Origin: Planctomycetota bacterium
Lineage (GTDB): Bacteria > Planctomycetota > Planctomycetia > Pirellulales > UBA1268
Assembly: GCA_016872955.1 (NCBI GenBank)
Contig: VGYP01000001.1
Coordinates: forward strand, 1 to 57,578
Direction of reading: 5' to 3'
DNA length: 57,578 nt
Shown here: one piece after another, positions 5,819 to 34,920 of the stretch
How positions within the stretch are numbered: position 1 is the stretch's first letter
Layout of the letters: the number at the start of each line of letters is the position of its first letter
Notes under the pieces: model-generated
What the model was told of the DNA's origin: nothing
Database searches by the model: none
The model's input: the letters and a program-made list of their open reading frames with translations, nothing else
Made by a program: the position numbers and the translations under genes

Positions 5819-5989
5819 GGCGAGTCTCCTGGGAGCGAAGGGGCGGGGCAGGCCGCATGGGCCCGCGACGTCGCGGGCAGCCGGTGCTGGGAAGCGGCGG
5901 GAATATACACCGGCCGGCCGGCGGTCCTCAATCGACGCGACGCATCGCCGCTGGTCGTTCGCGTCGGCCGCACGGTAGACTCTTCCTCC

Positions 5990-6676
5990 ATGCCCGACCC
6001 GGTGATCGTCCTGGAAAACGTCCGCAAGGGTTTCGCCATGCCGGGGGGCGAGCGGGTCGACGTGCTCGACGTGCCCAGCTTCCGCCTAGCCGCCGGCGAA
6101 CAGGTTGCCCTGGAGGGCTCGAGCGGCTCCGGCAAGTCGACGCTGCTGCACGTGATCGCGGGGATCATGCGGCCCGACTCGGGGCGGGTGGTCGTGGCCG
6201 GCACTGACATCACCACGCTGTCCGAAGGCCGCCGCGACCGGCTGCGGGCCGACACGCTCGGGCTGGTGTTCCAGCAGTTCAACCTCCTGCCCGGATTCAC
6301 GGCGCTGGAAAACGTGCTGGTCGCTATGTCGTTCGCGTCGGGCCAGCCGGATCGGGCCCGGGCGGCGGCGCTGCTCGAGGCCGTGGGGCTGGCCCACCGA
6401 CTGCATCACAAGCCCGTCGAACTCTCGACGGGCCAGCAGCAGCGGGTGGCGGTGGCCCGGGCCTTGGCCAACCGTCCCGCCGTGGTGCTCGCCGACGAGC
6501 CCACCGCCAGCATCGACGCGGCCCATCAGCAGCAGGTCGTCGACCTGCTCCGGAACACCTGCACCGGGCACGGCGTAGCGCTGCTGGTGGTCACGCACGA
6601 CGCCGACGTGGCCCGACAGTTTCCCCGCCGGCTCGCGCTCGGAGAGTTCAACCGGGCGACGCGGCAGCAGGCCTAA
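5990..6676 (+). CDS. ABC transporter ATP-binding protein (MacB/LolD-like)
   Basis: An internal ATG in the 4601..6676 ORF gives MPDPVIVLENVRKGF. It has Walker A GSSGSGKST, signature LSTGQQQRV and Walker B VVLADEPT. The upstream part of that ORF is antisense to gap. Confidence 0.9.
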   Translation: MPDPVIVLENVRKGFAMPGGERVDVLDVPSFRLAAGEQVALEGSSGSGKSTLLHVIAGIMRPDSGRVVVAGTDITTLSEGRRDRLRADTLGLVFQQFNLLPGFTALENVLVAMSFASGQPDRARAAALLEAVGLAHRLHHKPVELSTGQQQRVAVARALANRPAVVLADEPTASIDAAHQQQVVDLLRNTCTGHGVALLVVTHDADVARQFPRRLALGEFNRATRQQA

Positions 6677-6690
6677 GGGAGCCTCTCGAC

Positions 6691-8061
6691 ATGTCACTCC
6701 TGGGCATCGCCTGGCGCAGCATCCGGCAGCGGCTGTTCACAAGCGGGCTGACGGCCTTGTCGCTGGCGCTGGGCGTAGCGCTGGTCGTGGCCACGCTCGT
6801 GATCGGGGGCGTCGTCCGCGATGCCTTCGCCTCGGGGCAGGGGCTCGGCTACAACCTGATCGTGGGCGCGAAGGGCAGCCCGCTGCAGCTGGTCCTGAAC
6901 AGCGTCTACCTCGTCAGCAAACCGATCGAGAACATTCCCTGGTCCTTCTACCAGGCGTTCCTGCCCGCCGCGGCCCGGCCCGAGGGCACCGCGGGCCGCT
7001 ACGCCGGCAGCATCGCCCAGGCGGTGCCGATCTGCATGGGGGACTATTTCCGGAGCTTCCGCGTCGTGGGCACCAGCGCCGCCTATTTCGACGGCCTCAC
7101 GCTCGGCGACGGTCGGCCCTTCGCCTTCGCGACGGGACGAAACTTCCGTGACGACGAGTTCTTCGGCGGCGTGTTGGGCGCGACCGTGGCCGCCAGGCTC
7201 GGCCTCGCCGTGGGCGACCCCTTCTCCCCCACGCACGGCGCCGACGACGGGCTCGTGCACGACCCCTTCGTGGTCACCGGCATCCTAGCCCGCACCGACA
7301 CGCCGGTCGATCGCGGCGTGTACGTGAACATGGAGGGGTTCTATCTCCAGGAGGGACACGCCAAGCCGCTGCCCGCGGGGGGGGCGGGGGGCGACGACCG
7401 GCCGTCCCCCGATCCCCCGGCCGATCCCACGGCCGACCACGACCATGCCCATGACGCCGCGGCGGCCGGTGTGACGCAGCCCGCACCGCTCCCCTTCGCC
7501 CAGCGGGAGGTGACGGCGATCCTCGTGCAGACCGCCGCCCCCGGCGGCATGCCGCCGGAGCTGCTGGCGATGGGCCTGAAGACCACGATTAACGAGGGCC
7601 CCGACGGCCAGGCAGCCGAGCCCGTCCGCGAGATCCGCACACTTTTGGATCTCTTCGTCCGACCACTCGAGCTGCTCTTGCTGCTGGTCACCACGCTCGT
7701 CGTGATCGTCTCGGCGATCGGCATCCTCGTCAGCATGGTCGGCTCGGCCCTGGAGCGCAGCCGCGACGTGGCGGTGATGCGAGCGCTCGGGGCCCGCCGT
7801 AGCCACGTGCTCACGGCCGTGCTCCTGGAGGCGATCCTCCTGGCCGTCGGCGGTGGCTTGGCCGGCTGGCTGCTGGGCCACGGCATCGTGGCGGCGATCG
7901 GGCCGCTGATCACGACCAACGCCGGCGTCTCCGCCGGCTTCCTGTCGTCGGCGCCGCTCGGCGAGGCGCTGCTCGTGCCGCTGCTGGTCGTGCTGGCCAT
8001 CCTGGCGGCCCTGCTGCCGGCCCTGGCCGCCTACCGCACCGACGTGGCGAAGTGGCTCTGA
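6691..8061 (+). CDS. ABC transporter permease, FtsX/MacB-type, with a His/Asp-rich low-complexity insert
   Basis: 456 aa. It has an N-terminal TM helix, a large extracytoplasmic domain and a C-terminal FtsX-like 3-TM block (VMRALGARRSHVL...). The insert reads PADPTADHDHAHDAAAAG at about 7360-7495. Confidence 0.85.
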   Translation: MSLLGIAWRSIRQRLFTSGLTALSLALGVALVVATLVIGGVVRDAFASGQGLGYNLIVGAKGSPLQLVLNSVYLVSKPIENIPWSFYQAFLPAAARPEGTAGRYAGSIAQAVPICMGDYFRSFRVVGTSAAYFDGLTLGDGRPFAFATGRNFRDDEFFGGVLGATVAARLGLAVGDPFSPTHGADDGLVHDPFVVTGILARTDTPVDRGVYVNMEGFYLQEGHAKPLPAGGAGGDDRPSPDPPADPTADHDHAHDAAAAGVTQPAPLPFAQREVTAILVQTAAPGGMPPELLAMGLKTTINEGPDGQAAEPVREIRTLLDLFVRPLELLLLLVTTLVVIVSAIGILVSMVGSALERSRDVAVMRALGARRSHVLTAVLLEAILLAVGGGLAGWLLGHGIVAAIGPLITTNAGVSAGFLSSAPLGEALLVPLLVVLAILAALLPALAAYRTDVAKWL

Positions 8062-8129: not shown

Positions 8130-8761
8130 ATGACCGTGCGGTTGCGAACGCAACCCTGGCACGAGCCGACCGGCGGCCGCGGACCGGGGCGATTCTTCGT
8201 GGTCTTCCTGGCCACGATGTTCGCGCTGGAGTTCGGGATCATGGCGGTGCTGCCCCAGCGCTTGCCCGCGGACACATCGCCGCTGGCCGCGGCGGTGGTC
8301 GGCGCCGCGGTGCTGACGGCCGTGCTCGCGCCGCTGATCTGGTTCGGCTTCGTGCGGCCCGTCCAGCGCTTGCACGAGAGCCGCGGCGTGCTCCTGGGGA
8401 AGTTCCTGTCCGCCCAGGAGCACGAACGCCGGATCACCGCCAACCTCCATGACGGGCTCGGGCAAAACCTCACGGCGATGCTCGTCAGGCTCAGCGTCAT
8501 CGAGGGCTCGAGCGTCGCTGCCGGGGTGCGGGAGAATGCCGCGGCCCTCCGGGAGATCGCCGCCACCTCGCGCGCGGAGATCCGATCCAGGACATCGTCC
8601 GCTCGACGCGGCCGCCCGCACCCGACGACCTCAGGCCGGCCGCGGCCATCGAGCAGCAGTTGGCCGACCTGGCCGCCGCGACCGGCATCGCCACGGCCTT
8701 CTCCTAGCCCGACAGCGAGGGTCGCCGCTTCGCGGCGGAGATCAAGACCACCGTCTATCGC
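8130..8761 (+). pseudogene. decayed sensor histidine kinase (HisKA_3 / NarX-LiaS type)
   Basis: Two TM helices and the H-box EHERRITANLHDGLGQNL are intact. The frame is lost near 8575-8585; the continuation IQDIVRSTRPPAPDDLRPAAAIEQQLADL lies in another frame. There is an in-frame TAG at 8705-8707. The ATPase domain is missing: ...AEIKTTVYRV abuts the receiver start at 8762. Confidence 0.7.
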
Positions 8762-9188
8762 GTGGTGATCGCCGACGACCACGCCGTGATGTGGTCCGGA
8801 CTGCGGCTGTTGCCCGAAAGCCAGGCCGACATGCGGGCCGTTGACGACTGCGGGACCCACCAGGAGGTGCTCGCCACCCGCGAGCGGAATCGGGTGGGCG
8901 TCGACGTCGTGTCACTCGACCTCTCGATGCCCGGTGGATCGGCGGGCGCTCTGATCGAGGACGTCGTTCGCGGCCAACCGGGCGCGGGCCTGGTGGTGCT
9001 CACGACGCACGACGACGCCGGGCATGCCCGGCGTCGTCAAGTCGGCCACCGACCGGCTGTTCTTGAGCGTCAAGACCATCGAGTCATATCGATCGCGGCT
9101 GATGGCCAAACGCGGCCTCACCAATCGGGCGAAACTGACGCAGGTGGCCCTCGATGCGGGCCTGATGGACGGCACCGCGGGCGGCTGA
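8762..9188 (+). pseudogene. decayed NarL/LuxR-family response regulator
   Basis: The receiver start is VVIADDHAVMWSGLRLLPESQADM...DVVSLDLSMPGGSA...LVVLTTHDD. Part of the receiver and the linker are then missing, and the frame changes. The LuxR HTH tail LSVKTIESYRSRLMAKRGLTNRAKLTQVALDAGLM is read in a different frame and ends at TGA 9186-9188. Confidence 0.7.
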
Positions 9189-9190
9189 CG

Positions 9191-9734
9191 GAGCTCCGCC
9201 TGGGCGTTCTGGACGTATTCGCTCAGCCGCCGCAGCGTAAAGAGTTTCTCGCCGGGACAGGCGGTGTCACCCCGGAAGGCGTGGACCTGCGTCAAGACCC
9301 CCACGACGCCGAGGCTCTTGCGGGCCTGCGGGCTCACCTTTACCACGTCCCTGGTCGGCGGTGCCGGCGGCGGCATGATCCCGGCACCGCTTGCGGCCTC
9401 GGTCGCCGCAGGCACGACGTGCGGCAGCAGATCGTCGAGCGTGGGCAGCCGACCGCCGGGCGGCCTCACTGGCAGCCGGCGTTGGCCCGCGTCGGTCGTG
9501 TCGACCACGGCCGACATGGGCGGCAGGGCAATCGTCGTCCAGCCGTTCGCCGTGGGCATGGTCGTCGTCGTGGTGCGGGTGTCCGTGCCAGACCCAGTGG
9601 CGATGGAGCCGCAGCGCGTTCGGGGAGCCGGCCGAGGCGGCGGTCTCATGGCAGTGCGACACGGCTGAGACCGAGGGCAGCCCGTGGGCAACGACGATGG
9701 GCACGGCCAGCCAGCGGCCGAGCGACGGGATCAT
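9191..9734 (-). pseudogene. secreted His-rich protein, coding signal split over two frames (frameshifted gene or two overlapping ORFs)
   Basis: Frame A from ATG 9734 reads MIPSLGRWLAVPIVVAHGLPSVSAVSHCHETAASAGSPNALRLHRHWVWHGHPHHDDDHAHGE, with high GC3. Around 9540-9560, GC3-rich coding continues in a second frame: (M)PTANGWTTIALPPMSAVVDTTDAG...DVVKVSPQARKSLGVVGVLTQVHAFRGDTACPGEKLFTLRRLSEYVQNAQAELRQ. That second frame has no stop until 8912, inside the RR remnant, so the 3' end is undefined. Confidence 0.4.
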
Positions 9735-9833: not shown

Positions 9834-11330
9834 ATGAACCACCAGTCTGTCACCCTCCCGCCTGGGCCCGCGGCCCTGCTGCCCGTGCTTGTGGCCCTCG
9901 CCGCCGCGCTGCTGGTGACCCCCGCCAGCGCCTGCCCGTTCTGCTCCGCCGTGTCGCCGACCTTCGCCCAGGAGATCGCCCAGAGCGGGGCGGCCGTGAT
10001 CGCCACGCTCGTCGAGCCACCGCCGGCCTCAGCGCTCCAGCCCAATGCCGAGGGGCCGCTGCCCAAGGGGAAGTTCGAGGTGGTCGAGGTGCTCAAGGGG
10101 GCCGACGTCGTCGCGGCGGCCGGCCTTACCGGCGCCGGCGCCACCCCAATCGAGACGATCATGCTCGAGGCCCAGCCGGTGGGCACGACCTTCCTGTTGA
10201 TGGGCGTCGAACCGCCCCAGATCGTCTGGAGCAGCCCGATCCGCATCGGCGACCGCGCGATCGCCTACCTCAAGAAGCTCGCCGGCCTGCCGGAGAAGGG
10301 GGCCGACCGGCTGGCCTTCTTCCTGGGTCACCTCGAGGACGAGGACGACACGCTCACCCGCGACGCCTACGACGAGTTCGCCGTCGCCCCCTACGAGGAT
10401 GTCAAGAATCTCGCCGACCGGATGGACGCGACGCGGCTGCTCGGCTGGATCGAGAACCCCAAGATCCCGGCCAATCGCCGCCGTCTCTATGCCACCATGC
10501 TTGGCGTCTGCGGCACGCCGGCCGACGCCGAGCGGATCGCCGCGATCCTTGAGGGCAAGGGACTGGCCGCCGAGCAGCCCGAGATTCGCAACGGCCTCGA
10601 CGCCCTGATCGCCTGCTACGTCGCGCTGCGGGGGGAGTCGGCGCTCGACCTGGTCGACACGCTCTTCCTCGAGCGGGCCGGCGGCGGCAAGGAGGTGCCC
10701 TTCACCGAGACCTATGCGGCGGTGATGGCCCTGCGGTTTTTGGGGGAGGAGTCGCAGCTCGTGCCGCGATCGCGGGTGCTCGCCTCGCTGCGGCTGTTGC
10801 TCGACGAGCCGAAGCTCGCCGACCTGGTGATCGCCGACCTGTCCCGCTGGCAGGATTGGTCGCTCATCGAGCGGCTGACGACGATCTTCAAGGAGGCCAA
10901 GTCGGACAACATCTTCGTCCGCGAGCCAATCGTGAACTATCTCCGCGCCTGCCCGTTGCCCGAGGCCGCCGCGGCCGTCCGGGACCTTGAGCAAATCGAC
11001 CCCGAGGCGGTGCGACGGGCCGCCACGCTGGCGGGGCTCGCCGGCATCGCGGCCGCCACCCCAGCCGGCGACGACGCCGCGGCCAACCCCGCGGGCGACG
11101 CCGACCTCGCCGGCCAGATCGGCGCCGTGATCGCCGACGAGGATCCGGCCGACGGTAACCCCGGCCGCGATCCATCGTCCCCACTCCCGCCAAGCCGCAC
11201 TCCGTCGACCGCACCCGCCGGCGACGGCTGGAAGCGGGTCCTCTGGGGCGTGGTCGTCCTGGTAGTGGCGGTCGTCACCCGGTCGTTGCTCAAGCCCGGA
11301 TCGTCAAGGGGCCGGCAGGTATCGCTGTGA
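9834..11330 (+). CDS. uncharacterised envelope protein: signal peptide ending in C-P-F-C, helical-repeat body, C-terminal TM anchor (paralog 1)
   Basis: MNHQSVTLPPGPAALLPVLVALAAALLVTPASA|CPFCSAV. The body is alpha-helical and HEAT-like. The C-terminal TM helix is WKRVLWGVVVLVVAVV. It is clearly paralogous to 15568..16704. TACAAT at 9821-9826 sits immediately upstream of the ATG. Confidence 0.7.
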   Translation: MNHQSVTLPPGPAALLPVLVALAAALLVTPASACPFCSAVSPTFAQEIAQSGAAVIATLVEPPPASALQPNAEGPLPKGKFEVVEVLKGADVVAAAGLTGAGATPIETIMLEAQPVGTTFLLMGVEPPQIVWSSPIRIGDRAIAYLKKLAGLPEKGADRLAFFLGHLEDEDDTLTRDAYDEFAVAPYEDVKNLADRMDATRLLGWIENPKIPANRRRLYATMLGVCGTPADAERIAAILEGKGLAAEQPEIRNGLDALIACYVALRGESALDLVDTLFLERAGGGKEVPFTETYAAVMALRFLGEESQLVPRSRVLASLRLLLDEPKLADLVIADLSRWQDWSLIERLTTIFKEAKSDNIFVREPIVNYLRACPLPEAAAAVRDLEQIDPEAVRRAATLAGLAGIAAATPAGDDAAANPAGDADLAGQIGAVIADEDPADGNPGRDPSSPLPPSRTPSTAPAGDGWKRVLWGVVVLVVAVVTRSLLKPGSSRGRQVSL

Positions 11331-12046
11331 ACTCCCCCGGACCATGCCGAGTGCCCACGAGCACGGGACTTTTCGACGCACCCGCCCTCTCCGCCCCGCG
11401 CGTCGACGCGGCAGTTGGCGACGATCGCTACCGCGCTGTCTCCGGAGCGGCGATCGTGGCGCTGGCCCTCGCCCTGCTGACGCCGCTGGTGTTCGTCGGC
11501 TGGACCTTCGCGGCGGTGCCGGTGGTCGGGGTCGTGATCGCCCTGGTGGCACTGGGCGACATCGCCCGCCGACCCGAGGCCGTCACCGGGCGGGGCCTCG
11601 CGATCACCGCCCTGGGGGTCTCGGCCACCAGCCTCGTGGCGGGCCTGGCCTACCTTGCGACGGTCTACGCGGCGGAACTGCCCGAGGGCTTCACGCGGCT
11701 CACCTATGCGGTCCTGCAGCCGCTGCCGGGCGACCCGCCCGCGGCAGTGCCCGACTCGGCCCACGCCGTCGCCGGCCAGAACGTGCTGCTCAAGGGCTAC
11801 ATGTACCCGGGCACGCGGCAGCGGGGGATCACCGAGTTTCTGCTCTGCCGCGACCAAGGCGACTGCTGCTTCGGCGGGCAGCCCAAGATCACCGACCGGG
11901 TGCTCGTACGGCTCGCCGATCCGACCGGCATGGTGTTCACCCAGGGGCTCGTCAAGATCGCCGGCCGGTTCCGCGTCGAGCCGGCCGGCACGCCTGAACT
12001 CGGCGGCGGCGTGCTCTACCACATCGATGACGCCGTCACCCGTTAG
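11327..12046 (+). CDS. membrane protein with DUF4190-like N-terminus and DUF3299-like C-terminal domain
   Basis: The GTG start overlaps the upstream stop (GTGA at 11327-11330). The TM pair is AIVALALALLTPLVFVGW / VVGVVIALVALGDIARRP...GRGLAITALG. The C-terminus reads VLLKGYMYPGTRQRGITEFLLCRDQGDCCFGGQPKITDRVLVRL...GRFRVEP. Confidence 0.7.
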   Translation: MNSPGPCRVPTSTGLFDAPALSAPRVDAAVGDDRYRAVSGAAIVALALALLTPLVFVGWTFAAVPVVGVVIALVALGDIARRPEAVTGRGLAITALGVSATSLVAGLAYLATVYAAELPEGFTRLTYAVLQPLPGDPPAAVPDSAHAVAGQNVLLKGYMYPGTRQRGITEFLLCRDQGDCCFGGQPKITDRVLVRLADPTGMVFTQGLVKIAGRFRVEPAGTPELGGGVLYHIDDAVTR

Positions 12047-12073: not shown

Positions 12074-12586
12074 ATGGACCACCCCGCCGCGACAATCCTC
12101 TTGATGGCCACACTCGCCGCCGTCGGCTGCGGCGGATCCCGCGAGCCGGCCGCGGTGCCGGCGCCCACCACGCGGCCGACGATTTCGGACGCGGGGACGG
12201 CCCCGCCGCCGGCCGCGCCGCGGGAGATCACCTTCGACGACATCAAGCTCGAGATGGAGAAGGGGGCCCCCTTCACCCGCGAGCTGCTGCCCAAGCGGGT
12301 GACCGCCCTGCCGGGCTCGGCCATCCGGATCCGCGGCTACATCCTGCCGAGCTTCCAGCAGACGGGCCTGACACAGTTCGTGCTCGTCCGCGACAACCAG
12401 GAATGCTGCTTCGGCCCGGGCGCGGCGCTGCACGACTGCATCGTGGTGCGGATGCGGCCCGGGAAGACGGCTGATTTTTCGATCCGGCCGGTGGCCGTCG
12501 CCGGCACCTTCCGGATCGACGAGTTGCGGGCCCCCGACGGATCGCACCTGGCGATCTACGCCCTCGACGGGGACGACGTGAAGTAG
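12074..12586 (+). CDS. DUF3299-like lipoprotein
   Basis: The lipobox is LLMATLAAVGCGG. The domain IRIRGYILPSFQQTGLTQFVLVRDNQECCFGPGAALHDCIVVRM...VAGTFRIDE parallels the C-terminus of the previous gene, including the shared CCFG motif. Confidence 0.7.
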   Translation: MDHPAATILLMATLAAVGCGGSREPAAVPAPTTRPTISDAGTAPPPAAPREITFDDIKLEMEKGAPFTRELLPKRVTALPGSAIRIRGYILPSFQQTGLTQFVLVRDNQECCFGPGAALHDCIVVRMRPGKTADFSIRPVAVAGTFRIDELRAPDGSHLAIYALDGDDVK

Positions 12587-12826: not shown

Positions 12827-12852
12827 TCTTGAGCCCGATCAGTTTTGAAGTC

Positions 12853-13894
12853 ATGCTTCCTGGCATGACTGCACGGAAGCTTCACAACCTGAAGACCGAG
12901 ATGCAGGCGTTCGTCGAGGATGTGGCCGCCGGCATCGGACGGAGTGAGCGGAAACACTGGTGCTCGACGGTGATCGCAAGAGCATCGAGCCGATGGCCGG
13001 TCGGCTCACCGCGATCGATCCGCCGGAGAAGGACTACGTCCAGGCGCTCCAGCAGTTCATCAACCAGAGCAACTGGGAGGACTCGCTGGTTCAGGAAAAC
13101 ATGCGGCAGCGTATCGGCCGCATCTGCCGGAGGCGTGGACGACGGATGCCAAACGGATGAAAAAGGCCGGTGTTCCGGCCGAGATTGGCTACCGTCCGAA
13201 GTGGCAGATTGCCCTGGAGATGCTCCGACAAGCGCGAGTGGAAGGATTCTCAGGGCCAGTGTTGGCTGACAGTGCCTACGGCACCGTGACGCAGTTCCGG
13301 CGGGAACTTGACGCGCTTGGCTTGCCGTGGTGCCTGGGCATCGACAGCACGCTGCGGGTGATTGCGGCGAACGCCGATCTGGGGCCAGTACCGGCGAAGG
13401 GGCCGATGGGCAGAACGCCGACACGGCCGCACAAACTCGCCGACGGCACGTTGAAGACCAGGCGTGTTGCGGACTGGGCATGGAGGCGGCGTTCCGCCTT
13501 CCGCAAGGTTACCTGGCGACAGGGCAGCCGAGGTCCGATGGCGAGCCGCTTCGCCGTCTGGCGGGTCCGGTATGCCCATCGCGCGAGGATGGGCATTGAG
13601 CCGCTTGAGGCGTGCTGGCTGATCGCTGAATGGCCGACCGACGCCGAGAAGCCGACGAAGTTCTTCTTCTCGAATCTGCCTGCCACGGCATCCCAGAAGG
13701 AGCTCGTTTGGCTTGCGAAGCGTCGCTGGTGGATCGAGCACTCCTACAAGGAACTCAAGGACGAACTTGGACTCGACCACTTCGAGGGACGTTCCTGGCG
13801 AGGCTGGCATCATCACGTCACGCTCACGATGCTGGCGTACCTCTTCCTCGTCGAACTGCGAAAGAAGCTCGGGAACAAGGGGATCCTGGCCTGA
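12853..13894 (+). pseudogene. IS701-family DDE transposase, frameshifted and internally deleted
   Basis: Three frames must be joined. The first is MTARKLHNLKTEMQAFVEDVAAGIGRSERKHW. The second is LDGDRKSIEPMAGRLTAIDPPEKDYVQALQQFINQSNWED. The third is HLPEAWTTDAKRMKKAGVPAEIGYRPKWQIALEML...ADSAYG...RWWIEHSYKELKDELGLDHFEGRSWRGWHHHVTLTMLAYLFL. The block that normally carries the first catalytic Asp, between the Wd motif and LP..W, is missing. Confidence 0.8.
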
Positions 13895-14071: not shown

Positions 14072-14760
14072 CGCCGGAGCCTGGGGCTCGCCGTCGGCGT
14101 GCTCGGCCGGCCGGTGGAGGTCCGCGGTCCCAACACCAAGTCGTGGTGGCTCGACCTCTTTCCGCGGCGGGCGGAGCGGCTCTGCCAGGAGGGCGTCGCC
14201 GCACGCTTCGGCTGCTGGACGAGCACCAGCCGCAAGGCCGTGATCCCGGTGCTCGAGGAGTTCGACCGGCTGCTCTTCTAGCCCATGCAATCCGAGGGCA
14301 ACGAGTCGTCGCCACGCGTCGTTAACGGCGGATCGGTGCCCAACCAGAAAATTCTGCCGGCCATCGACTGGCTGCTCTCCCCCGGCGGGCGAGGCCTATC
14401 TGCCCCTCGGCCACAAGCAGTTCCGCAGCGCAATCGAGATGATCCAGGCAGCGCGTGACGAGCGATCAAATGGAGGCGGCCTACGGCCTGGTGCACCTTT
14501 GGAAGCGGGCCGTCGAAAAGGCCGGCTCGTTCAAGACGGCGGCGGTGCGGCAGGCGCTCCGCGAGGGCCTCGAGGTGGACGCGCCCGGCGGGCCGCTGCG
14601 GATCGACCCCGGCACGCAGCACGCGTGGAAGCGGTTCCGGCTAGGCCGGATCCACGCCGATCGGCAGTTCGACATCGTCCACGAGTCGGCCGAGCCGACC
14701 CGCCCGATCCCTCCCCCGAGGTCGCCTTTCCCGGCTGCAGTGCGACTGGACGGCGCGAGG
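14072..14760 (+). pseudogene. urtA: urea/amide ABC transporter substrate-binding protein (UrtA/AmiC-like) pseudogene
   Basis: Fragments lie in UrtA order: VLGRPVEVRGPN...VAARFGCWTSTSRKAVIPVLEEFDRLLF. Next comes TAG (14279-14281) where Tyr is expected, then PMQSEGNESSPRVV..VPNQKILPAIDWLLSPGGRG. A frame change and deletion follow, then YLPLGHKQFRSAIEMIQAA. After another frame change and deletion comes QMEAAYGLVHLWKRAVEKAGS...LEVDAPGGPLRIDPGTQHAWKRFRLGRIHADRQFDIVHES. The N-terminus and signal peptide are absent. Confidence 0.7.
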
Positions 14761-15567: not shown

Positions 15568-16704
15568 ATGAAATACCGCTGGCCGATCGTCATCGCTTTT
15601 TCAACACTGGCGGGGGGCGTGTCGGCCTGTCCGTTTTGCAACGTCGTGGGCCGCCCGCTCGCCGCCCGTCGCGATGCGGCGGCGGTGGTCGCCGCGGGCG
15701 AGGCGGCCGGCTCCGTGCGGCAGGACCCGGCCGGGCCGCGACAGCCGTTCACCGTCCGCAGCCTACTCCGCGGGGACCGCGTCGCGGTGGGGGACGAGGT
15801 CGACGGCCGCGTGGCCGGGCCGGTCGCGGGCACGGCGGTACTCTTCGGCGACGACCGCGGCGACTGGGAGGCGCTAGCGGCCGACGAGGCGGTGCTGGGA
15901 TACGTCGCTGCGGCCCCGGTCGCCTCGGCCGATGCGGCGGATCGGCTCCGCTGGTTCGCCGGCCGGCTCGAAGATCCCAACGCGACGATCGCCGCGGACG
16001 CATTTAGCGAGTTCGGCGTGGCCCCGTTCGCCGCGGTCGTGGCGGCCTCGGCCGCTCTCGATCCTGCCCGCCTCCGCGGTTGGCTCGACGAGCCGGGGAT
16101 CGATCCGCGGCGGCGGGGCTTCTACGGTCTGGCGGTCGGCATCGTCGCCCGCCGCGCGGCGGACCTCGGCGACGAGGCGGAGGCCCGCCGGTGCGTTGCC
16201 GCGCTCGAACGGCCGCTCGTCGCGCCGGGCAGCGATTTGCGGGCCGGCTTCGACGGCCTGCTCGGCGGCCTGCTGGTCGCCCGCGGTGAGGCGGCCCTCG
16301 ACTGGCTCGTGGCCCGCGGACTCGTCGCCGCCGACACGCGGGCCGGCGACGCACGGCACATGCTGGCGGCGCTGCGATTCGCCTGGGAAGACCTCGCCGA
16401 TCACCTGCCCCGCCAGCGGGTCGCGGCGATCGCGGCACGGCTACTGGCCAATCCCGCCGTGGCGGCCGACGTGGCGGTGGATCTGGCCCGCTGGCGGCAC
16501 TGGGCGAGCGTGGAGGACGTCGCGGCGCTCTGGGACGCCGCCGGCCGCGACGATCCGCTCGTGCGCCGCGCCGTGGCCGGCTATCTGCGGGCCTGCCCGC
16601 TCGCTTCGGCGCGGCGGCACGCCGCGCGGATCGCCGCCGCGTCGCCCGGCGCCTGGCAGGCCGCCGTGGCGGCCGCCGCCTGGCCGCCGCAGGGATTGGA
16701 TTGA
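15568..16704 (+). CDS. uncharacterised envelope protein with signal peptide ending in C-P-F-C (paralog 2, orphan copy)
   Basis: MKYRWPIVIAFSTLAGGVSA|CPFCNVV. Several blocks are shared with 9834..11330. ADRLRWFAGRLEDPNATIAADAFSEFGVAPF matches ADRLAFFLGHLEDEDDTLTRDAYDEFAVAPY. RLRGWLDEPGIDPRRRGFY matches RLLGWIENPKIPANRRRLY. GYLRACPL matches NYLRACPL. It lacks the C-terminal TM tail of paralog 1. Confidence 0.7.
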   Translation: MKYRWPIVIAFSTLAGGVSACPFCNVVGRPLAARRDAAAVVAAGEAAGSVRQDPAGPRQPFTVRSLLRGDRVAVGDEVDGRVAGPVAGTAVLFGDDRGDWEALAADEAVLGYVAAAPVASADAADRLRWFAGRLEDPNATIAADAFSEFGVAPFAAVVAASAALDPARLRGWLDEPGIDPRRRGFYGLAVGIVARRAADLGDEAEARRCVAALERPLVAPGSDLRAGFDGLLGGLLVARGEAALDWLVARGLVAADTRAGDARHMLAALRFAWEDLADHLPRQRVAAIAARLLANPAVAADVAVDLARWRHWASVEDVAALWDAAGRDDPLVRRAVAGYLRACPLASARRHAARIAAASPGAWQAAVAAAAWPPQGLD

Positions 16705-24760: not shown

Positions 24761-24987
24761 GTTTTGGGGTCCGCGAAGATCGATCTTCTGGGCAGAGTTT
24801 GCCGGCAGCGCAAGCCCTTCCGATGGCGGTGTATGCGGCCCCGTGGGCCGACCCGGCCAACGACGGGATGCCGGCCAGCTCCTGCCGTTTCCCGGTGTAG
24901 TGGCTCGTCGCTTCGACGCGGCCGTGGTCCGGTAACCGGCGCCGGTTTCGCGAAACGTTGGCTTTTTTTTCCCCTCTGGAGGTTTCC

Positions 24988-26301
24988 GTGAAGAAGTTTT
25001 TCTCGTCCAAGTTTCTGCCGTGGGTGGCGGCTGCCGGCGTCTGCGTCGGCGGCACGCTCGTCCGCGGTGAGGATGCGGCGGCCGCGCCGGCCGCCGACTC
25101 CGTGCTGACCGCCGAACTCGAGGGCGGAGCCGCCGGTCCGTGCATGCGGACGGTGAAGGTCTGGAAGATGGTGCCCGAGATCCGCGAGGTCGAGTGCACC
25201 GAATGGGCGACCGAGGTCCGCGAGCGGACCCTGACGGTCAAGAAGCGGGTGCCCCGGATCGAGGAGAAGACCCGCACCTCCACCGTGATGGTTCCGGAGA
25301 AGCGGACGAAGACGGTCGAGTACACCGTCAACGTCAACGTCCCCGAGACCAAGACGGTCGAGTACAGCGTCAAGGTGCCCTTCACCGAGGAGGTCGAACA
25401 GACCTACACGGTGCGGGTGCCGATCAAGGAGGAGAAGACGGCCACCTACAAGGTGATGGTGCCGTACACCGAGGAGCGGACCGCCACCTGCAAGGTGAAC
25501 GTGCCCTTCACCGAGGAGGTCCAGCAGACCTACACGGTGCGGGTTCCCTACACCGAGGAGATGACCGGCACGCGGACGGTGGCGAAGCGGGTTCCCGTGA
25601 AGGGCACCAAGACCGTCACCTGTCGGGGTGGTCACTGGGTCACGGAGGCCAAGGAGATCTCGGCCAACGGCAAGTACGACGCCGCAGGCAACCCCTGCTG
25701 CCCGAAGGTGGTCTGCTGCCGCAAGTGGGTCCCCACCTGCGAGACCAAGGAAGTCGAGGTCACCACGTGGAAGACGGAGTGCGAGCAGGTGCCCTTCACC
25801 TACTGCGTGAAGAAGTTTCGTTGCGAGGAGCGGACCCGCACCGTGTGCGTGCGGAAGAACCGCTGCGAGGAACGGACCCGCACCTACTGCGTCAAGCTCT
25901 ATCGCTGCGAGGAGCGGACGCGGACCTACTGCGTCACGAAGATGGTGCCCGAGACCCGCACCAAGAAGGTGTGCATCCACAAGTGCCGCTGTGAGACTCG
26001 CACCCGCGAGATCACGGTCAACAAGTGCATCGCCGAAACCCGCACCCGCGAGTGCTGCCACACGGTGATGGTCCCGTGCCAGAAGACCCAGACCTATTCC
26101 GTCTGCTGCAGCGACGTCGTCGAGGAGCAGAAGACAGAGTCGTACGTGGTCCGCGTGCCGAAGACGGTCACCAAGAAGGTGTGCGTCAAGGTGAAGAAGT
26201 GCGTCGAGGAGCAGGTCCCGGCCGGTGACGCCGGCGCTTGCGGCAACGGCGGCAACGGTCGCGGCAAGCGCGGTCTCCTCCACTGCCGTAAGGGCTGCTG
26301 A
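24988..26301 (+). CDS. secreted YTV-type repeat protein with Cys-rich C-terminal repeat region
   Basis: The GTG start is 5 nt after a GGAGG. The signal peptide is KKFFSSKFLPWVAAAGVCVGG. Repeats follow of the type T.EYTV.V.VP.T/ YTVRVPYTEE. Then come RCEERTRT(V/Y)CV units and many Cys. As I recall, the YTV repeat family was defined on Rhodopirellula proteins. Confidence 0.8.
   Translation: MKKFFSSKFLPWVAAAGVCVGGTLVRGEDAAAAPAADSVLTAELEGGAAGPCMRTVKVWKMVPEIREVECTEWATEVRERTLTVKKRVPRIEEKTRTSTVMVPEKRTKTVEYTVNVNVPETKTVEYSVKVPFTEEVEQTYTVRVPIKEEKTATYKVMVPYTEERTATCKVNVPFTEEVQQTYTVRVPYTEEMTGTRTVAKRVPVKGTKTVTCRGGHWVTEAKEISANGKYDAAGNPCCPKVVCCRKWVPTCETKEVEVTTWKTECEQVPFTYCVKKFRCEERTRTVCVRKNRCEERTRTYCVKLYRCEERTRTYCVTKMVPETRTKKVCIHKCRCETRTREITVNKCIAETRTRECCHTVMVPCQKTQTYSVCCSDVVEEQKTESYVVRVPKTVTKKVCVKVKKCVEEQVPAGDAGACGNGGNGRGKRGLLHCRKGC
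25312..25560 (+). repeat. coding tandem repeats (YTV-type, ~12-14 aa units)
   Basis: TVEYTVNVNVPETKTVEYSVKVPFTEEVEQTYTVRVPIKEEKTATYKVMVPYTEERTATCKVNVPFTEEVQQTYTVRVPYTEE. Confidence 0.8.
25819..25944 (+). repeat. three tandem 42-nt coding repeats
   Basis: The units are RCEERTRTVCVRKN, RCEERTRTYCVKLY and RCEERTRTYCVTKM. At the DNA level the core cgctgcgaggagcggacccgcacc recurs with few changes. Confidence 0.85.
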
Positions 26302-29028: not shown

Positions 29029-30370
29029 CCTGCCATGGTGCGTGATCGGCGCCGGGCCGTCGGGCCTGACGGCGCTCAAGCATCTCCATGCCGCCGGTGT
29101 CGCCGCCGAGTGCCTGGAACGCGAGACGGGCATCGGCGGCAACTGGCGGTTCGGCTCCGGCACTAGCCGCGTCTTTGCGTCGACGCGCTTGATCAGCTCC
29201 CGGCGGCTCACCGAGTACGGCGACTTCCGCATGCCCGCCGACTGGCCGGCCTATCCCGATCACCGCCAGTGCCTCGCCTACCTGCAGGCCTACGCCGCTG
29301 AGTTCGGCCTGGCGGAGCACGTCGCGACGGGTGTCGCGGTCGAGCGGATCGAGCCGGCCGGGCCGCCCGGCGCCGGCTGGATCGTGCATGCCACCGGCCG
29401 GCCGCCCCGATCCTACGCCGGCGTGGTGATTGCCAGCGGGCACAACCACGTGCCACGCTGGCCGGAGATCCCCGGTGCCTTCACGGGTGATCTCCTCCAT
29501 GCCGCCGACTACAAGAGCCCGACTGAGCCCTTGGCGATCGCAGGCCGGCGGGTGCTCGTGATCGGCGGCGGCAACTCCGGCTGCGATCTCGCGGTGGAGT
29601 GCTCACGACACGCGGCCCTGACGGCGCACTCCACGCGCCGGGGCTACTTCGTCGTGCCGCGGTTCATCGTCGGCCGCCCGGCCGACCTCCGCGGGGAGCG
29701 GCTGCTGAAGATGCACGCGCCCCTCTGGCTGCGGCGATTGGTCGCCCTCCGCGGCATCGCCGGCACGATCGGCCTGCCCTGGAGCCACGGCCTGCTGAGG
29801 CCCGATCACCGGCTCTTCGAGACCCACCCGGTCGTCAACGCCGACCTGCTCGGGCGGATCGACGCCAACGCGATCCGGCCCGCCGGTGACGTGGCCGCCT
29901 TCGCCGGTGCAAGCGTCCTGTTTCGTGACGGCGGGCGGCAGGATTTCGACGTCGTCATCTGTGCGACCGGCTACCACACGACGCTTCCCTTCATCGACTG
30001 CCGGCTGCTTGGCGCCACGACCGCCGACGGCACGCCCCGGCTGTTCATGAACCTGCTGCATCCCGACCGGGACGACGTCGCTGTGGTCGGGCTCATCCAG
30101 CCAGACAGCGGCCAATGGGGCATCACGGGCGTGCAGGCCCGGCTCGTGGCGGGCATGGCGTCAGCCACGAGGTGGGCGCCGAGGGCCGCGGCCTGGCTCT
30201 ACGCCCGCCGTCGGCGGCCCGGCCGACGATCACCGATCCGATACGTCGACTCGCCGCGGCACACGCTGGAGGTCGAGCACTTCGCCTACCGTCGTGAGCT
30301 CGAGCGACTCGTGACCGCACTCGACCGCCGCCTCCGCGCGTGGCGAGCCCAGCCTACCGTGGAAGCGTGA
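29012..30370 (+). CDS. flavin-containing monooxygenase (NAD(P)/FAD-dependent)
   Basis: CVIGAGPSGLTALKHL is the FAD GxGxxG motif and VIGGGNSGCDLAVE is the NADPH site. ATGY is near the C-terminus. Confidence 0.8.
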   Translation: MHSPADLPWCVIGAGPSGLTALKHLHAAGVAAECLERETGIGGNWRFGSGTSRVFASTRLISSRRLTEYGDFRMPADWPAYPDHRQCLAYLQAYAAEFGLAEHVATGVAVERIEPAGPPGAGWIVHATGRPPRSYAGVVIASGHNHVPRWPEIPGAFTGDLLHAADYKSPTEPLAIAGRRVLVIGGGNSGCDLAVECSRHAALTAHSTRRGYFVVPRFIVGRPADLRGERLLKMHAPLWLRRLVALRGIAGTIGLPWSHGLLRPDHRLFETHPVVNADLLGRIDANAIRPAGDVAAFAGASVLFRDGGRQDFDVVICATGYHTTLPFIDCRLLGATTADGTPRLFMNLLHPDRDDVAVVGLIQPDSGQWGITGVQARLVAGMASATRWAPRAAAWLYARRRRPGRRSPIRYVDSPRHTLEVEHFAYRRELERLVTALDRRLRAWRAQPTVEA

Positions 30371-34262: not shown

Positions 34263-34281
34263 CCCAAGAAGACTGATTCGC

Positions 34282-34920
34282 TCAACGATCGCCGGCCGCG
34301 GCTGGGAGTTGCGCCGGCGTGTCGACGTCGGCGAACGACGCCAGGGTCGGATCGACGGCCGAGAGTTCCCCCTCCGCGAGCAGGCGGACGGCCGCCGGTG
34401 TGTCGAGGCGCAGGCGGTCGATGAGGTCCCGCGGCCTCACGCGGCCGGCGGCCAACGCCGCACCGATCTCGACGGCCAGGTCGGTCTTCAGAGCCGAGAC
34501 GAGTACCTGCGGATGGCCGCCGACGTCGGGCACCGCCCACCGCACGCCCGGCTGGCGGACCGCCGCCACCAGCGCTAGCACGACCTCCGGCCGCAGCCAC
34601 GGCACGTCGCAGGCGACGACCGCGGCGAGCCGCGGTCCGTGACCGGCGTAGAGCAGCGCGTCGTGGATCGCGGCCAACGGTCCGGCCGCCGGCCTCGTGT
34701 CGCGGATGGTCTCGATGCCGGGAGGCAGCGGGGGCAGGGGCTGTCCCGTGGCCGCCACGACGATCACACGGTCGGCCGCGACCGCGACCGCGCGACAGAC
34801 CCGTGCGAGCATGCTCTCGCCGTCCACCATGAGAGCCGCCTTGCCTGCCGGCCCCACCAGCGTGCCCATCCGCCGCGAGCGGCCGCCGGCCAGCACGATC
34901 GCGATCACGTCGTCGGCCAT
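34282..34920 (-). CDS. mobA: molybdenum cofactor guanylyltransferase
   Basis: An internal ATG gives MADDVIAIVLAGGRSRRMG...KAALMV.G.SML. The upstream 165 codons of the 34282..35415 ORF have no coding character. Confidence 0.8.
   Translation of the reverse strand: MADDVIAIVLAGGRSRRMGTLVGPAGKAALMVDGESMLARVCRAVAVAADRVIVVAATGQPLPPLPPGIETIRDTRPAAGPLAAIHDALLYAGHGPRLAAVVACDVPWLRPEVVLALVAAVRQPGVRWAVPDVGGHPQVLVSALKTDLAVEIGAALAAGRVRPRDLIDRLRLDTPAAVRLLAEGELSAVDPTLASFADVDTPAQLPAAAGDR

Follow-up and report, generated by a model that had tools for sequence, protein, structure and literature searches.

Operons that combine a split MacB transporter with DUF3299 proteins, namely PA4063-66 of Pseudomonas aeruginosa and ZrgABCDE of Vibrio, have been described as Zur-regulated and as acting in zinc and cobalt homeostasis; each includes a dedicated periplasmic metal-binding protein (PMC11481552, PMC9817125, PMC9820375). 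In both, the ABC ATPase and the MacB_PCD/FtsX permease are separate proteins, encoded together with one or more periplasmic DUF3299 proteins and an extra periplasmic accessory protein, and there is no MacA-like adaptor (PMC11481552, PMC9817125). A structural-genomics structure of PA4066 is described as well (PMC9820375).

These operons are the closest known system to a gene cluster in the 57.6-kb window studied here, that is, the whole stretch of planctomycete DNA that was analysed. In an initial annotation of this window, two paralogous genes had been picked out because their products carry Cys-Pro-Phe-Cys (CPFC) right after the signal peptide, and both ORFs are indeed present on the plus strand, at 9834..11330 and 15568..16704. 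We found, beyond that annotation, that both genes belong to a MacB-type ABC/DUF3299 operon and that a TIMP/NTR-type OB barrel follows the CPFC motif. The best explanation is that both gene products serve in the periplasm as accessory subunits of a split MacB (FtsX-permease) type ABC system specific to planctomycetes. The account given below of how the proteins are built, where they are predicted to be cleaved and to which operon they belong is, in our view, very likely to be correct.

A conserved cluster around a MacB-type permease

The first gene of the conserved cluster encodes an ABC transporter ATP-binding subunit of 228 aa with Walker A and signature motifs (5990..6676, plus strand), whose ortholog in one related locus (L001) matches Pfam ABC_tran. 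It lies upstream of the permease gene in most of 81 related loci. The permease itself (6691..8061, plus strand) is of the MacB type, with Pfam matches to FtsX (E 3.8e-14) and MacB_PCD (E 2.5e-12). The long CPFC paralog follows as a 498-aa ORF that begins with the ATG at 9834. A longer ORF with a GTG start at 9684 is possible, and the ATG is favoured because homologs are ∼490–500 aa long and have CPFC at median residue 27. The 1.8 kb between the permease and this gene hold decayed remnants of a histidine kinase and a response regulator, which we set aside as lying outside the system.

Two DUF3299 genes come next. The start of the first (11327..12046, plus strand) overlaps the stop codon of the long CPFC gene; it encodes a membrane-anchored protein with DUF4190 helices (Pfam, E 6e-6) and a DUF3299-like domain (Pfam, E 0.09), and carries a CCFG motif that is present in 79 of 82 orthologs. 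Its paralog (E 6e-16), encoded at 12074..12586 on the plus strand, is a predicted lipoprotein with a DUF3299 domain (Pfam, 24.4 bits against a 22-bit cutoff) and a Cys-Cys motif found in all 79 of its orthologs (79/79). The lipoprotein matches PDB entry 4HSP (E 3.5e-6), which we take to be the PA4066 structure and which has GACIH at the CC position. Since CPFC is found in two proteins and CC in both DUF3299 paralogs, all four accessory proteins carry paired cysteines.

The conserved order is thus ABC ATPase, MacB_PCD/FtsX permease, long CPFC protein, transmembrane DUF3299 protein, DUF3299 lipoprotein and, often after an insertion, short CPFC protein. This order is kept in the 81 related loci and in ∼36%-identical relatives, with intergenic gaps that are short or overlapping, and in several related loci the short paralog directly follows the DUF3299 genes. 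Terminal inverted repeats of a neighbouring transposase remnant were looked for and not found. The cluster resembles PA4063-66/ZrgABCDE in its separate ATPase and permease, its DUF3299 proteins and its additional periplasmic accessory proteins; neither a MacA-like membrane-fusion gene nor a ZrgA-like gene is present in the window cluster or in loci L001 and L082. It differs in three respects. First, the His-rich DUF2796 metal-binding protein PA4063/ZrgA is missing, and two CPFC proteins of OB-HEAT architecture, unrelated to PA4063/ZrgA, stand in that role or position. Second, DUF3299 is duplicated. Third, the DUF3299 proteins have CC(F)G instead of GACIH.

The two CPFC proteins are 31% identical across ∼374 residues (E 4e-32), and the blocks previously listed as conserved (ADRL..F.G.LED, F.EF.VAP, RL.GW...P.I...RR..Y and YLRACPL) all align between them. 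There are at least 998 homologs of the long paralog, the family comprises ∼2,600 clusters at 50% identity, and all its named matches are Planctomycetota MAGs. The initial annotation could not place the proteins in a named family, and no source that we found gives the family a functional name. Pfam and NCBIfam scans of both paralogs returned only a sub-threshold HEAT_2 match, a PDB sequence search with the long paralog returned no match, and one with the full-length family profile returned only noise. Likewise, we found no description of the family in the literature on CPFC and periplasmic proteins, on bacterial TIMP-like proteins or on DUF3299. Both CPFC proteins are uncharacterised and are predicted to belong to the planctomycete envelope.

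CPFC at the predicted mature N-terminus

In the long paralog, CPFC (9933..9944, plus strand) directly follows a Sec signal peptide that ends in A-S-A (9834..9932, plus strand; ...PASA|), and in the short paralog (15628-15639, plus strand) it follows a signal peptide at 15568-15627 (plus strand; ...GVSA|). A search of the 57.6-kb window for the degenerate pattern TGYCCNTTYTGY finds these two CPFC sites and no others, against an expectation of 0.16 occurrences from shuffles. From an alignment of 150 diverse representatives with the two paralogs, we obtained conservation of 147/147 for C34, 144/146 for P35, 142/147 for F36 and 146/147 for C37, which bears out the invariance of both cysteines. No other element of the family is as conserved as CPFC, whose conservation is therefore far beyond chance. 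The two cysteines of the motif are the only ones in the N-terminal domain of either window paralog, and across the family that domain has no other conserved Cys column. We rejected C373, in the YLRACPL block, as a third ligand: Cys is kept at this position in only 131 of 151 diverse members and so is not an obligate partner of CPFC.

Across the family, the residues ahead of the motif make up a canonical signal peptide: a charged n-region is followed by a hydrophobic h-region, with AxA immediately before the Cys. Among long-type members, Ala is found at −3 in 103 of 118 and at −1 in 109 of 118, and Arg occupies −2 in 66 of 118. Given this conserved AxA|C junction, the mature chain should begin with CPFC once the signal peptide is cut off, as had been proposed; by the sequence rule the Cys is predicted to be residue 1 of the mature chain, AxA preceding it in essentially all members. 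Moreover, no spacer separates AxA from CPFC in ∼147 diverse sequences, which implies that the free N-terminus matters.

The initial annotation had left open which signal peptidase makes the cut. If it were signal peptidase II, Cys34 of the long paralog and Cys21 of the short one would be diacylglycerol-modified, such that the first Cys would serve as a lipid anchor and only the second would be free. The short paralog of the window (LAGGVSA|C) and 69 of 115 short-type homologs do fit a permissive PROSITE-style lipobox, and this subfamily is ambiguous. Where the signal peptide ends, the long type does not follow the lipobox [LVI][ASTVI][GAS]C: only 15 of 118 members fit even the permissive form, and the Arg at −2 in most long-type members argues against it. 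In addition, −3 is Ala rather than Leu, Val or Ile in most members of both types, ∼21 of 115 short-type members have Asp, Glu, Gln, His or Arg at −2, and a lipid anchor would leave the invariance of the Pro, the Phe and the second Cys unexplained. We consider lipidation of the first Cys very improbable. The family-wide residues favour signal peptidase I over II, although for the short type the choice is less clear.

Signal peptidase I cleavage must also be weighed against no cleavage at all, in which case the N-terminal hydrophobic segment would stay in the membrane, the long paralog would be anchored twice and CPFC would lie at the membrane surface. The n-region of the window's long paralog, which has neither Lys nor Arg, would suit such an anchor, but one or the other is present in the n-region of 309 of 359 homologs. 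The strongly conserved small residues at −3 and −1, with a variable −2, are the signature of a cleavage site and would be needless for an anchor, and the short paralog, whose N-terminus is of the same kind, has nothing else that could anchor it. Retention of the segment thus appears extremely unlikely.

The N-terminal barrel and the solenoid

The AlphaFold model of the long paralog (mean pLDDT 85.9) places a five-stranded OB barrel with flanking helices in the ∼100 residues after CPFC. This N-terminal domain (residues 34–139; 9933..10250, plus strand) is assigned to the TIMP/NTR type from the model, Foldseek and hhalign, and the barrel is modelled with a pLDDT of 80 as an isolated domain and >90 across nearly all of the region in the full-length model. 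The top eight Foldseek matches in the PDB are agrin NtA and TIMP-1, with TM-scores of 0.42–0.55 (query length) and probabilities of 0.87–1.0, at E-values of only ∼1e-2 to 1e-1. No thioredoxin-fold chain appears among the 50 Foldseek matches listed, in line with the earlier argument that this fold is absent: because the signal peptide directly precedes CPFC, there can be no β1 strand and no thioredoxin fold.

What marks TIMPs functionally is the free Cys at their N-terminus, whose α-amino group and carbonyl cap the zinc of metzincins, and in TIMP-1 three disulfides (C1-C70, C3-C99 and C13-C124) tie the N-terminal segment to the barrel. Like the TIMP N-domain, NTR modules and agrin NtA, the CPFC domain is secreted and has a Cys at the predicted mature start and a five-stranded OB barrel preceded by a short helix. 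Hydrophobic motifs (…VIxAK…, F/YxI..KG, FLxxG and W) are shared in collinear order as well: in the hhalign alignment SDLVIRAK, YEIK..KG, FLIAG and W105 of TIMP are matched by ADvvvlA, F.v..VLKG, FLLMG and W132 of the CPFC family. This alignment spans 81 collinear columns (P 8.6e-4, probability 23.5%), and its score of 24.1 compares with maxima of 17.1 in 150 column shuffles and 18.3 in 150 block shuffles, the TIMP profile comprising only four sequences.

There are also clear differences. The CPFC domain is bacterial and seen only in Planctomycetota, has CxxC instead of CxC, and continues into a HEAT solenoid; its genes lie in an operon for an ABC transporter. None of the three NTR disulfides is found, the partner Cys all being missing, and the Pfam models TIMP (PF00965) and NTR (PF01759) match neither the paralogs nor 90 full-length members nor 49 isolated N-domains at E-values up to 10.

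The resemblance raises the possibility that the proteins are inhibitors or regulators rather than carriers. The N-terminal segment, stiffened by a C34-C37 disulfide, would then enter the cleft of a partner, either a periplasmic metalloprotease or a site on the pump, where the α-amino group and carbonyl of Cys1 would cap a protein-bound zinc. Such a plug would account for the top structural matches, for the collinear profile match scoring above all shuffles and for the Cys that all members have right where cleavage is predicted. However, with the counterparts of C70, C99 and C124 absent, the segment cannot be stapled to the barrel, and the hook is ∼3 residues longer than that of TIMP in the hhalign register. 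The weak Foldseek E-values and the silent Pfam models count against it too. A secreted metalloprotease or metzincin is found neither in the window nor in the conserved cluster; the sole metallopeptidase seen is an M24 aminopeptidase P at ∼40.5–41.9 kb, ∼24 kb away. We judge such a plug quite unlikely.

Behind the barrel, model helices, Foldseek and HEAT_2 define a HEAT/ARM-like α-solenoid (residues 140–409; 10251..11060, plus strand), in agreement with the helical-repeat-like body noted previously. Tandem helical hairpins form the solenoid in the model (helices at 140–408), Foldseek matches it to deoxyhypusine hydroxylase, designed armadillo proteins and importin-α, and a sub-threshold HEAT_2 match is found in 74 of 90 members (best E 1.8e-6). 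It has many near-invariant charged and aromatic residues (R159, D177, E181, D256, R301, D335, R338 and W342). A Pro/Ala/Asp-rich low-complexity linker, predicted to be disordered, follows (residues 410–464; 11061..11225, plus strand; pLDDT ∼47–59) and leads to a C-terminal transmembrane helix with a basic tail after it (residues 465–485, helical in the model; 11226..11288, plus strand). The short paralog (378 aa) has the same OB and HEAT body and no membrane helix; a strongly hydrophobic C-terminal window is present in most long-type representatives and is absent from the short type. The initial annotation was thus right about the C-terminal helix, which is typical of the long subfamily, but its suggestion that both ends are anchored would fail if the signal peptide is cleaved, since the long paralog would then be held only by that helix.

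Candidate roles for the paired cysteines

We propose that both proteins are exported by Sec and cut at AxA by signal peptidase I, which would give chains that start with CPFC and have a free α-amino group. This hook would head the TIMP/NTR-type OB barrel, itself mounted on the HEAT/ARM solenoid; the long paralog would be tethered to the inner membrane through its ∼55-residue flexible linker and C-terminal helix, and the short paralog would be soluble. The two thiolates, possibly with the N-terminal amine, may bind a thiophilic metal ion and pass it to and from the vicinal Cys-Cys pairs of both DUF3299 proteins of the operon, in a ligand-exchange relay that would either feed the MacB-type pump or be emptied by it, with the solenoid as a putative docking surface.

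A precedent for a CxxC/CC relay is the hand-over from the CxxC of MerP to the CC of MerT. As in MerP/MerT and Atx1/CopZ, a CxxC dithiol in an exported protein is accompanied by co-encoded proteins with vicinal Cys-Cys, and this arrangement suggests thiolate ligand exchange. MerP and CopZ have a ferredoxin-like fold with an internal GMTCxxC motif, as opposed to the N-terminal CPFC, and we found no sequence or structural similarity of the CPFC proteins to MerP/MerT or Atx1/CopZ. That the CxxC and CC motifs make up a pump-attached thiolate relay, along which a soft metal is passed in the periplasm, is a tentative reading that we place somewhat short of probable.

Several observations touch on this relay. 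The periplasmic domain of the permease has an acidic loop that is sometimes His-rich (DHDHAHD here); since the loop varies and most orthologs do not have it in a His-rich form, it is a weak hint of metal handling at best. On the other side, the aligned upstream regions of 50 loci have σ70-like boxes and a small inverted repeat and no recognised metal-responsive operator: no AT-rich Zur-like or Fur-like box was found upstream of the ABC gene, there being no established planctomycete Zur site for comparison. The neighbours of the cluster are the housekeeping genes tig, clpP, gap and sucCD, not metal-resistance genes, and it is beside such core genes that the cluster is kept in freshwater Pirellulales-type planctomycetes. 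PA4066 has no evident zinc binding (PMC11481552), the CPFC segment is modelled with low confidence (pLDDT ∼56), and the short paralog is absent from a few related loci. A strongly conserved GGAATATACACC...GCTCAATCG element, considered as an operator, was rejected because it is the divergent gap promoter (TTGAGG-18-TATATT, minus strand).

The near-invariant Pro and Phe between the cysteines also speak against the metal relay, since they are typical of redox-active CP[FY]C sites. CPFC could instead be a catalytic dithiol/disulfide of the glutaredoxin/DsbE kind on a non-thioredoxin scaffold, with the Cys1 ammonium lowering the thiol pKa; its partners in disulfide exchange would be either the DUF3299 CC motifs or a cargo of the pump. 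The paired cysteines of all four accessory proteins fit this idea, as does the retention of the dipeptide found in the Grx and Mpt53 active sites. Indeed, an hmmsearch of the N-domain profile against PDB sequences returned only thioredoxin-fold oxidoreductases, aligned over the CxxC and the helix and strand that follow it (Mpt53, 1lu4, E 0.013; yeast Grx2, E ∼1). But the Mpt53 match, 34 residues long, is due for the most part to the four residues of the motif, and no thioredoxin-type Pfam family emerged from the scan of 90 members and 49 N-domains, Glutaredoxin matching a single one of the 49 at E 0.035. CPFC differs from these oxidoreductases in lying at the mature N-terminus of a confidently modelled OB barrel, where the thioredoxin fold, its β1 strand and its cis-Pro loop are all lacking, and the cluster has no evident electron donor or acceptor. 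A redox hook of this kind is rather unlikely in our view. The CxxC may also simply be a disulfide in the oxidising periplasm. Metal-binding and redox hooks, the two alternatives raised by the initial annotation, remain the right pair of candidates.

A more far-reaching version of the metal reading is that the N-domain and the TIMP/NTR module of metazoans are truly related. In this prokaryotic form, the exposed Cys1 would ligate a metal through its amine and the second thiol would complete a metal-capture or capping hook, working with the MacB-type ABC transporter and the Cys-Cys DUF3299 proteins. We hold this to be unlikely. If it is true, metal handling in the bacterial envelope would gain a new class of system, and an NTR-type module would for the first time have a defined role in bacteria. 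The module has so far been treated as eukaryotic, and a bacterial domain that combined its fold with an N-terminal Cys in the manner of TIMPs would be relevant to where it came from.

To our knowledge, the partners and substrates of type VII (MacB-like) ABC transporters beyond MacAB-TolC, Lol and FtsEX are poorly known. If CPFC is a metal or redox hook, the proteins described here would be a new kind of accessory subunit for these transporters, and would provide a way into the still unexplained DUF3299 proteins that Pseudomonas and Vibrio encode in their Zur-regulated PA4063-66/Zrg systems. For the planctomycetes, in which some 2,600 sequence clusters of this family have been without any annotation, an operon with paired-Cys helpers suggests an unstudied metal- or thiol-handling machine.

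Conservation and predicted export of the CPFC proteins

The window (about 70% G+C) carries a number of housekeeping genes (trigger factor, clpP, gap, sucCD and gyrB) and two plus-strand ORFs, the long CPFC gene (9834-11330, 498 aa) and the short CPFC gene (15568-16704, 378 aa), which are paralogs based on 31% identity (E 4e-32); all of the conserved blocks listed in the initial annotation align between them. The codons for Cys-Pro-Phe-Cys (CPFC) are at 9933-9944 (+) and 15628-15639 (+), and TGYCCNTTYTGY is matched in the window at these two places only, compared to 0.16 matches expected. Relatives recovered by word-based search number at least 998 for the long paralog and at least 516 for the short. 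When 1.84 billion representatives were searched with a profile, 2,639 clusters reached E ≤ 1e-3, of which 1,051 had E ≤ 1e-30. The homologs named by organism are all from Planctomycetota or Pirellulales metagenome-assembled genomes. No relative of either paralog carries a function label in any source, the entries being nameless or ‘hypothetical protein’; literature searches found no published description of the family, and the proteins belong to none of the curated families tested. Elsewhere in the window, a 1,360-aa ORF with coding-like codon bias (30354-34436, −) has no Pfam match, and 24901-26301 (+) encodes a protein in which the YTV repeat (Pfam PF07639) occurs four times.

The CPFC motif noticed in the initial annotation is real, with more support than was available to its author. 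Among the 150 best representatives plus the two window paralogs, the motif is nearly invariant (C34 147/147, P35 144/146, F36 142/147 and C37 146/147, numbered on the long paralog), while C373, in the YLRACPL block, seemed invariant among close relatives but is found in only 131/151 of this wider sample.

The sequence preceding CPFC has the pattern of a textbook Sec signal peptide, with Lys or Arg in the n-region of 309/359 sequences, an uncharged stretch with a median of 18 residues, and small residues at −3 and −1, while −2 varies. A cysteine anchored by lipid, as the initial annotation considered, finds some favor in the short type, in which a permissive lipobox fits 69/115 sequences, although −2 can also be Asp, Glu, Gln, His or Arg; in the long type, the lipobox fits only 15/118 and Arg occupies −2 in 66/118, and we consider this reading very unlikely. 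Thus, based on the signal-peptide pattern, the −3 and −1 residues and the lipobox counts, both paralogs are predicted to be signal peptidase I substrates, with mature chains beginning Cys-Pro-Phe-Cys. The first Cys always follows the cleavage site without a spacer, which suggests that the free N-terminus may itself be functional.

Architecture of the long paralog and its N-terminal domain

An AlphaFold2 model of the long paralog, built from a 90-sequence alignment (mean pLDDT 85.9), has a signal-peptide helix (residues 12-26), a low-confidence stretch around CPFC (residues around 34-40, pLDDT about 56), a beta-rich domain (residues about 44-135) and an all-helical solenoid (residues 140-408), the latter two with pLDDT mostly above 90. 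These are followed by a disordered Pro/Ala/Asp-rich segment (residues about 410-460) and a C-terminal helix (residues 465-485) with a basic tail. The hydrophobic C-terminal helix is general in long-type representatives and absent from the short type. If the signal peptide is cleaved as predicted, the long paralog would therefore be a type I membrane protein whose N-terminus faces outward. The initial annotation had suggested anchoring at both ends, but the predicted cleavage leaves the C-terminal helix as the single anchor; the chance that the N-terminal helix stays uncleaved as an anchor, for which its hydrophobic stretch would serve, seems to us slighter even than that of a lipid anchor. In Foldseek searches with the whole model, HEAT/ARM proteins were matched (deoxyhypusine hydroxylase, designed armadillo proteins and importin-alpha), and Pfam HEAT_2 is found below threshold in 74/90 family members; the N-terminal part matches agrin NtA.

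The isolated N-domain (residues 34-144, pLDDT 80) was modeled as a short helix, five strands and a C-terminal helix, and its best eight Foldseek matches in the PDB are all NTR-type OB barrels. These include agrin NtA (1pxu; E 1.0e-2, TM 0.54, probability 1.0) and TIMP-1 chains (1uea_B, 9sop_A, 6n9d_B and 3ma2_C), with TIMP-2 and the C345C domain of complement C3 ranked lower; generic OB folds, such as ribosomal proteins, had lower probabilities. Similarly, hhalign comparison of 49 diverse CPFC N-domains with a four-sequence TIMP profile, for which the TIMP-1, TIMP-2 and TIMP-3 N-domain sequences had been confirmed against the PDB, gave P 8.6e-4 (probability 23.5%) over 81 collinear columns. 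The alignment pairs CPFC ADvvvlA with TIMP SDLVIRAK, F.v..VLKG with YEIK..MYKG, FLLMG with FLIAG, and the near-invariant W132 with TIMP W105. When the TIMP alignment was shuffled, this alignment's score of 24.1 was reached in 0/150 shuffles by column (maximum 17.1) and 0/150 by block (maximum 18.3); an earlier run with another N-domain alignment was weaker, with a score of 17.6 equalled by 8/200 block shuffles. The resemblance in fold is supported by the agreement of two independent methods, and homology with TIMP is possible.

The TIMP parallel matters because TIMPs work through a Cys that signal cleavage exposes as residue 1 and whose alpha-amino group is a ligand of the protease zinc (PMC9890683). 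We rejected membership in the TIMP family itself on the disulfide pattern, since the CPFC N-domain has no counterparts of the cysteines by which TIMPs staple their N-terminus to the barrel, and the Pfam TIMP and NTR models matched none of the 49 N-domains. A TIMP-like N-terminal plug, to which the fold would lend itself, or a purely structural disulfide is in our estimate distinctly unlikely.

A redox-active CxxC has more in its favor. Near-invariant Pro and Phe inside CxxC are a feature of redox-tuned sites, and the profile of 49 N-domains had only three hits among all PDB sequences, all of them thioredoxin-fold oxidoreductases: M. tuberculosis Mpt53 (CPFCNAEAPSLSQ..., E 0.013) and two chains of yeast glutaredoxin-2 (E about 1), each aligned from its own CP[FY]C into the next helix and strand. 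However, the matches are short (34-38 residues) and carried partly by the motif itself, and neither the full-length nor the N-domain model has a thioredoxin fold; we regard redox activity as somewhat unlikely.

Linkage to a MacB-type transporter and DUF3299 proteins

The gene order in the window is that of a related NCBI MAG: gap (minus strand), ABC_tran, MacB_PCD/FtsX, long CPFC, a 230-aa protein and DUF3299, followed by bestrophin-like, Peripla_BP_6, AIM24, short CPFC, sucC and sucD. In a tblastn map of 81 loci, nearly all contain the block of ABC ATPase (5990-6676 in the window), permease (6691-8061), long CPFC, TM-DUF3299 (11327-12046) and lipo-DUF3299 (12074-12586). The short CPFC gene lies past the three-gene insertion or directly 3′ of the second DUF3299 gene (L009, L037, L053, L072, L076, L081). 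The arrangement is kept in representatives only about 34-36% identical to the window paralogs: one (P0389) has the order ABC, FtsX, long CPFC, 252 aa and 179 aa, and another (P0378) has DUF3299 and then short CPFC. In five loci (L010, L020, L027, L038, L056), sucC comes immediately after AIM24 and there is no short paralog, which is therefore dispensable in some lineages.

Several remnants and putative regulatory elements lie around these genes. At 8130-9300 (+), between the permease and long CPFC genes, is a decayed two-component system: a HisKA_3 kinase fragment with a frameshift and an in-frame stop runs straight into a response-regulator receiver, which shifts frame into a LuxR-type HTH tail. 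This junction is only 17-250 nt in related loci, and several others (L020, L027, L035, L056, L066, L067) have multi-kb insertions there. A DDE transposase remnant (DDE_5/DDE_Tnp_1, in two frames; 12829-13894 (+) and 14455-14700), for which we looked for terminal inverted repeats and found none, occupies the position at which one related locus (L001) has the bestrophin-like gene and then Peripla_BP_6; of the latter, the C-terminal end alone remains here. In the gap/ABC intergenic region, a highly conserved GGAATATACACC...N12-14...GCTCAATCG element (5902-5931, −) occurs at the same spot in about 45/50 related loci; its minus-strand TTGAGG-18-TATATT is, as read from the sequence, a predicted sigma-70-type promoter for gap. 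Ahead of the ABC ATPase gene, related loci (e.g. L031, L062, L028, L022) have a short inverted repeat, either GAAAAAC-N3-5-GTTTTTGAC or GAAATC-N5-GATTTC, that overlaps the −35 box of the promoter for the ABC operon and whose arms covary between lineages; the window has a different one at 5940-5985, GACGCGA-N-TCGCGTC. The inverted repeat at this site may act as an operator.

The TM-DUF3299 and lipo-DUF3299 genes are themselves paralogs (E 6e-16). The first has DUF4190 membrane helices; the second has a lipoprotein-like signal, scores above the Pfam cutoff for DUF3299 and has a match to PDB 4HSP. Both have a conserved Cys-Cys (CCFG in 79/82 TM-DUF3299 and CC in 79/79 lipo-DUF3299 proteins) at the position of GACIH, within GACIHVPPPP, in 4HSP, a solved DUF3299 structure. 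The change to Cys-Cys is lineage-specific and falls in a loop that is probably functional.

A possible role in metal exchange

A split MacB-type transporter with DUF3299 is known from PA4063-PA4066 of P. aeruginosa and ZrgABCDE of Vibrio, which are under Zur control and function in zinc/cobalt homeostasis; most recently, a cobalt-pyochelin complex has been argued to be what they export (PMC11481552, PMC9817125, PMC9820375). In these systems, PA4063/ZrgA is a His-rich periplasmic metal-binding protein, and PA4066/ZrgE is a DUF3299 member of solved structure without a known role (PMC11481552, PMC9817125, PMC9820375). The planctomycete cluster has the pump and DUF3299 in common with them, but it lacks a ZrgA-like gene and a MacA-like adaptor, has two CPFC OB-HEAT proteins in their place, and has Cys-Cys in place of Cys-x-His in its DUF3299 proteins. 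The permease has a variable acidic loop in its periplasmic domain (residues about 230-262, window about 7380-7480). The loop is His-rich here (ADHDHAHD) and, with up to 6 His, in a small number of relatives, but most of them lack this enrichment; close to it is a conserved PTHGADDGxVHDPF motif.

Alongside what we observed of the architecture, conservation and operon linkage of the CPFC proteins, we propose that they would be periplasmic accessory subunits of the pump, with the HEAT solenoid as a docking surface and the tether of roughly 55 residues allowing the long paralog to extend across the periplasmic space. The N-terminal dithiol, either by itself or together with the free amine, might bind a thiophilic metal and exchange it with the Cys-Cys sites of DUF3299, a reading we put forward tentatively. 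Such an exchange would resemble the hand-over from the CxxC of MerP to the CC of MerT. The components resemble known kinds, but the combination of an NTR/TIMP-type OB barrel, a HEAT solenoid and a MacB/DUF3299 operon is new, as is the invariant N-terminal CPFC, and the proposed metal-exchange system may have arisen from the Zn/Co-related pumps of the Zrg type or have converged with them.
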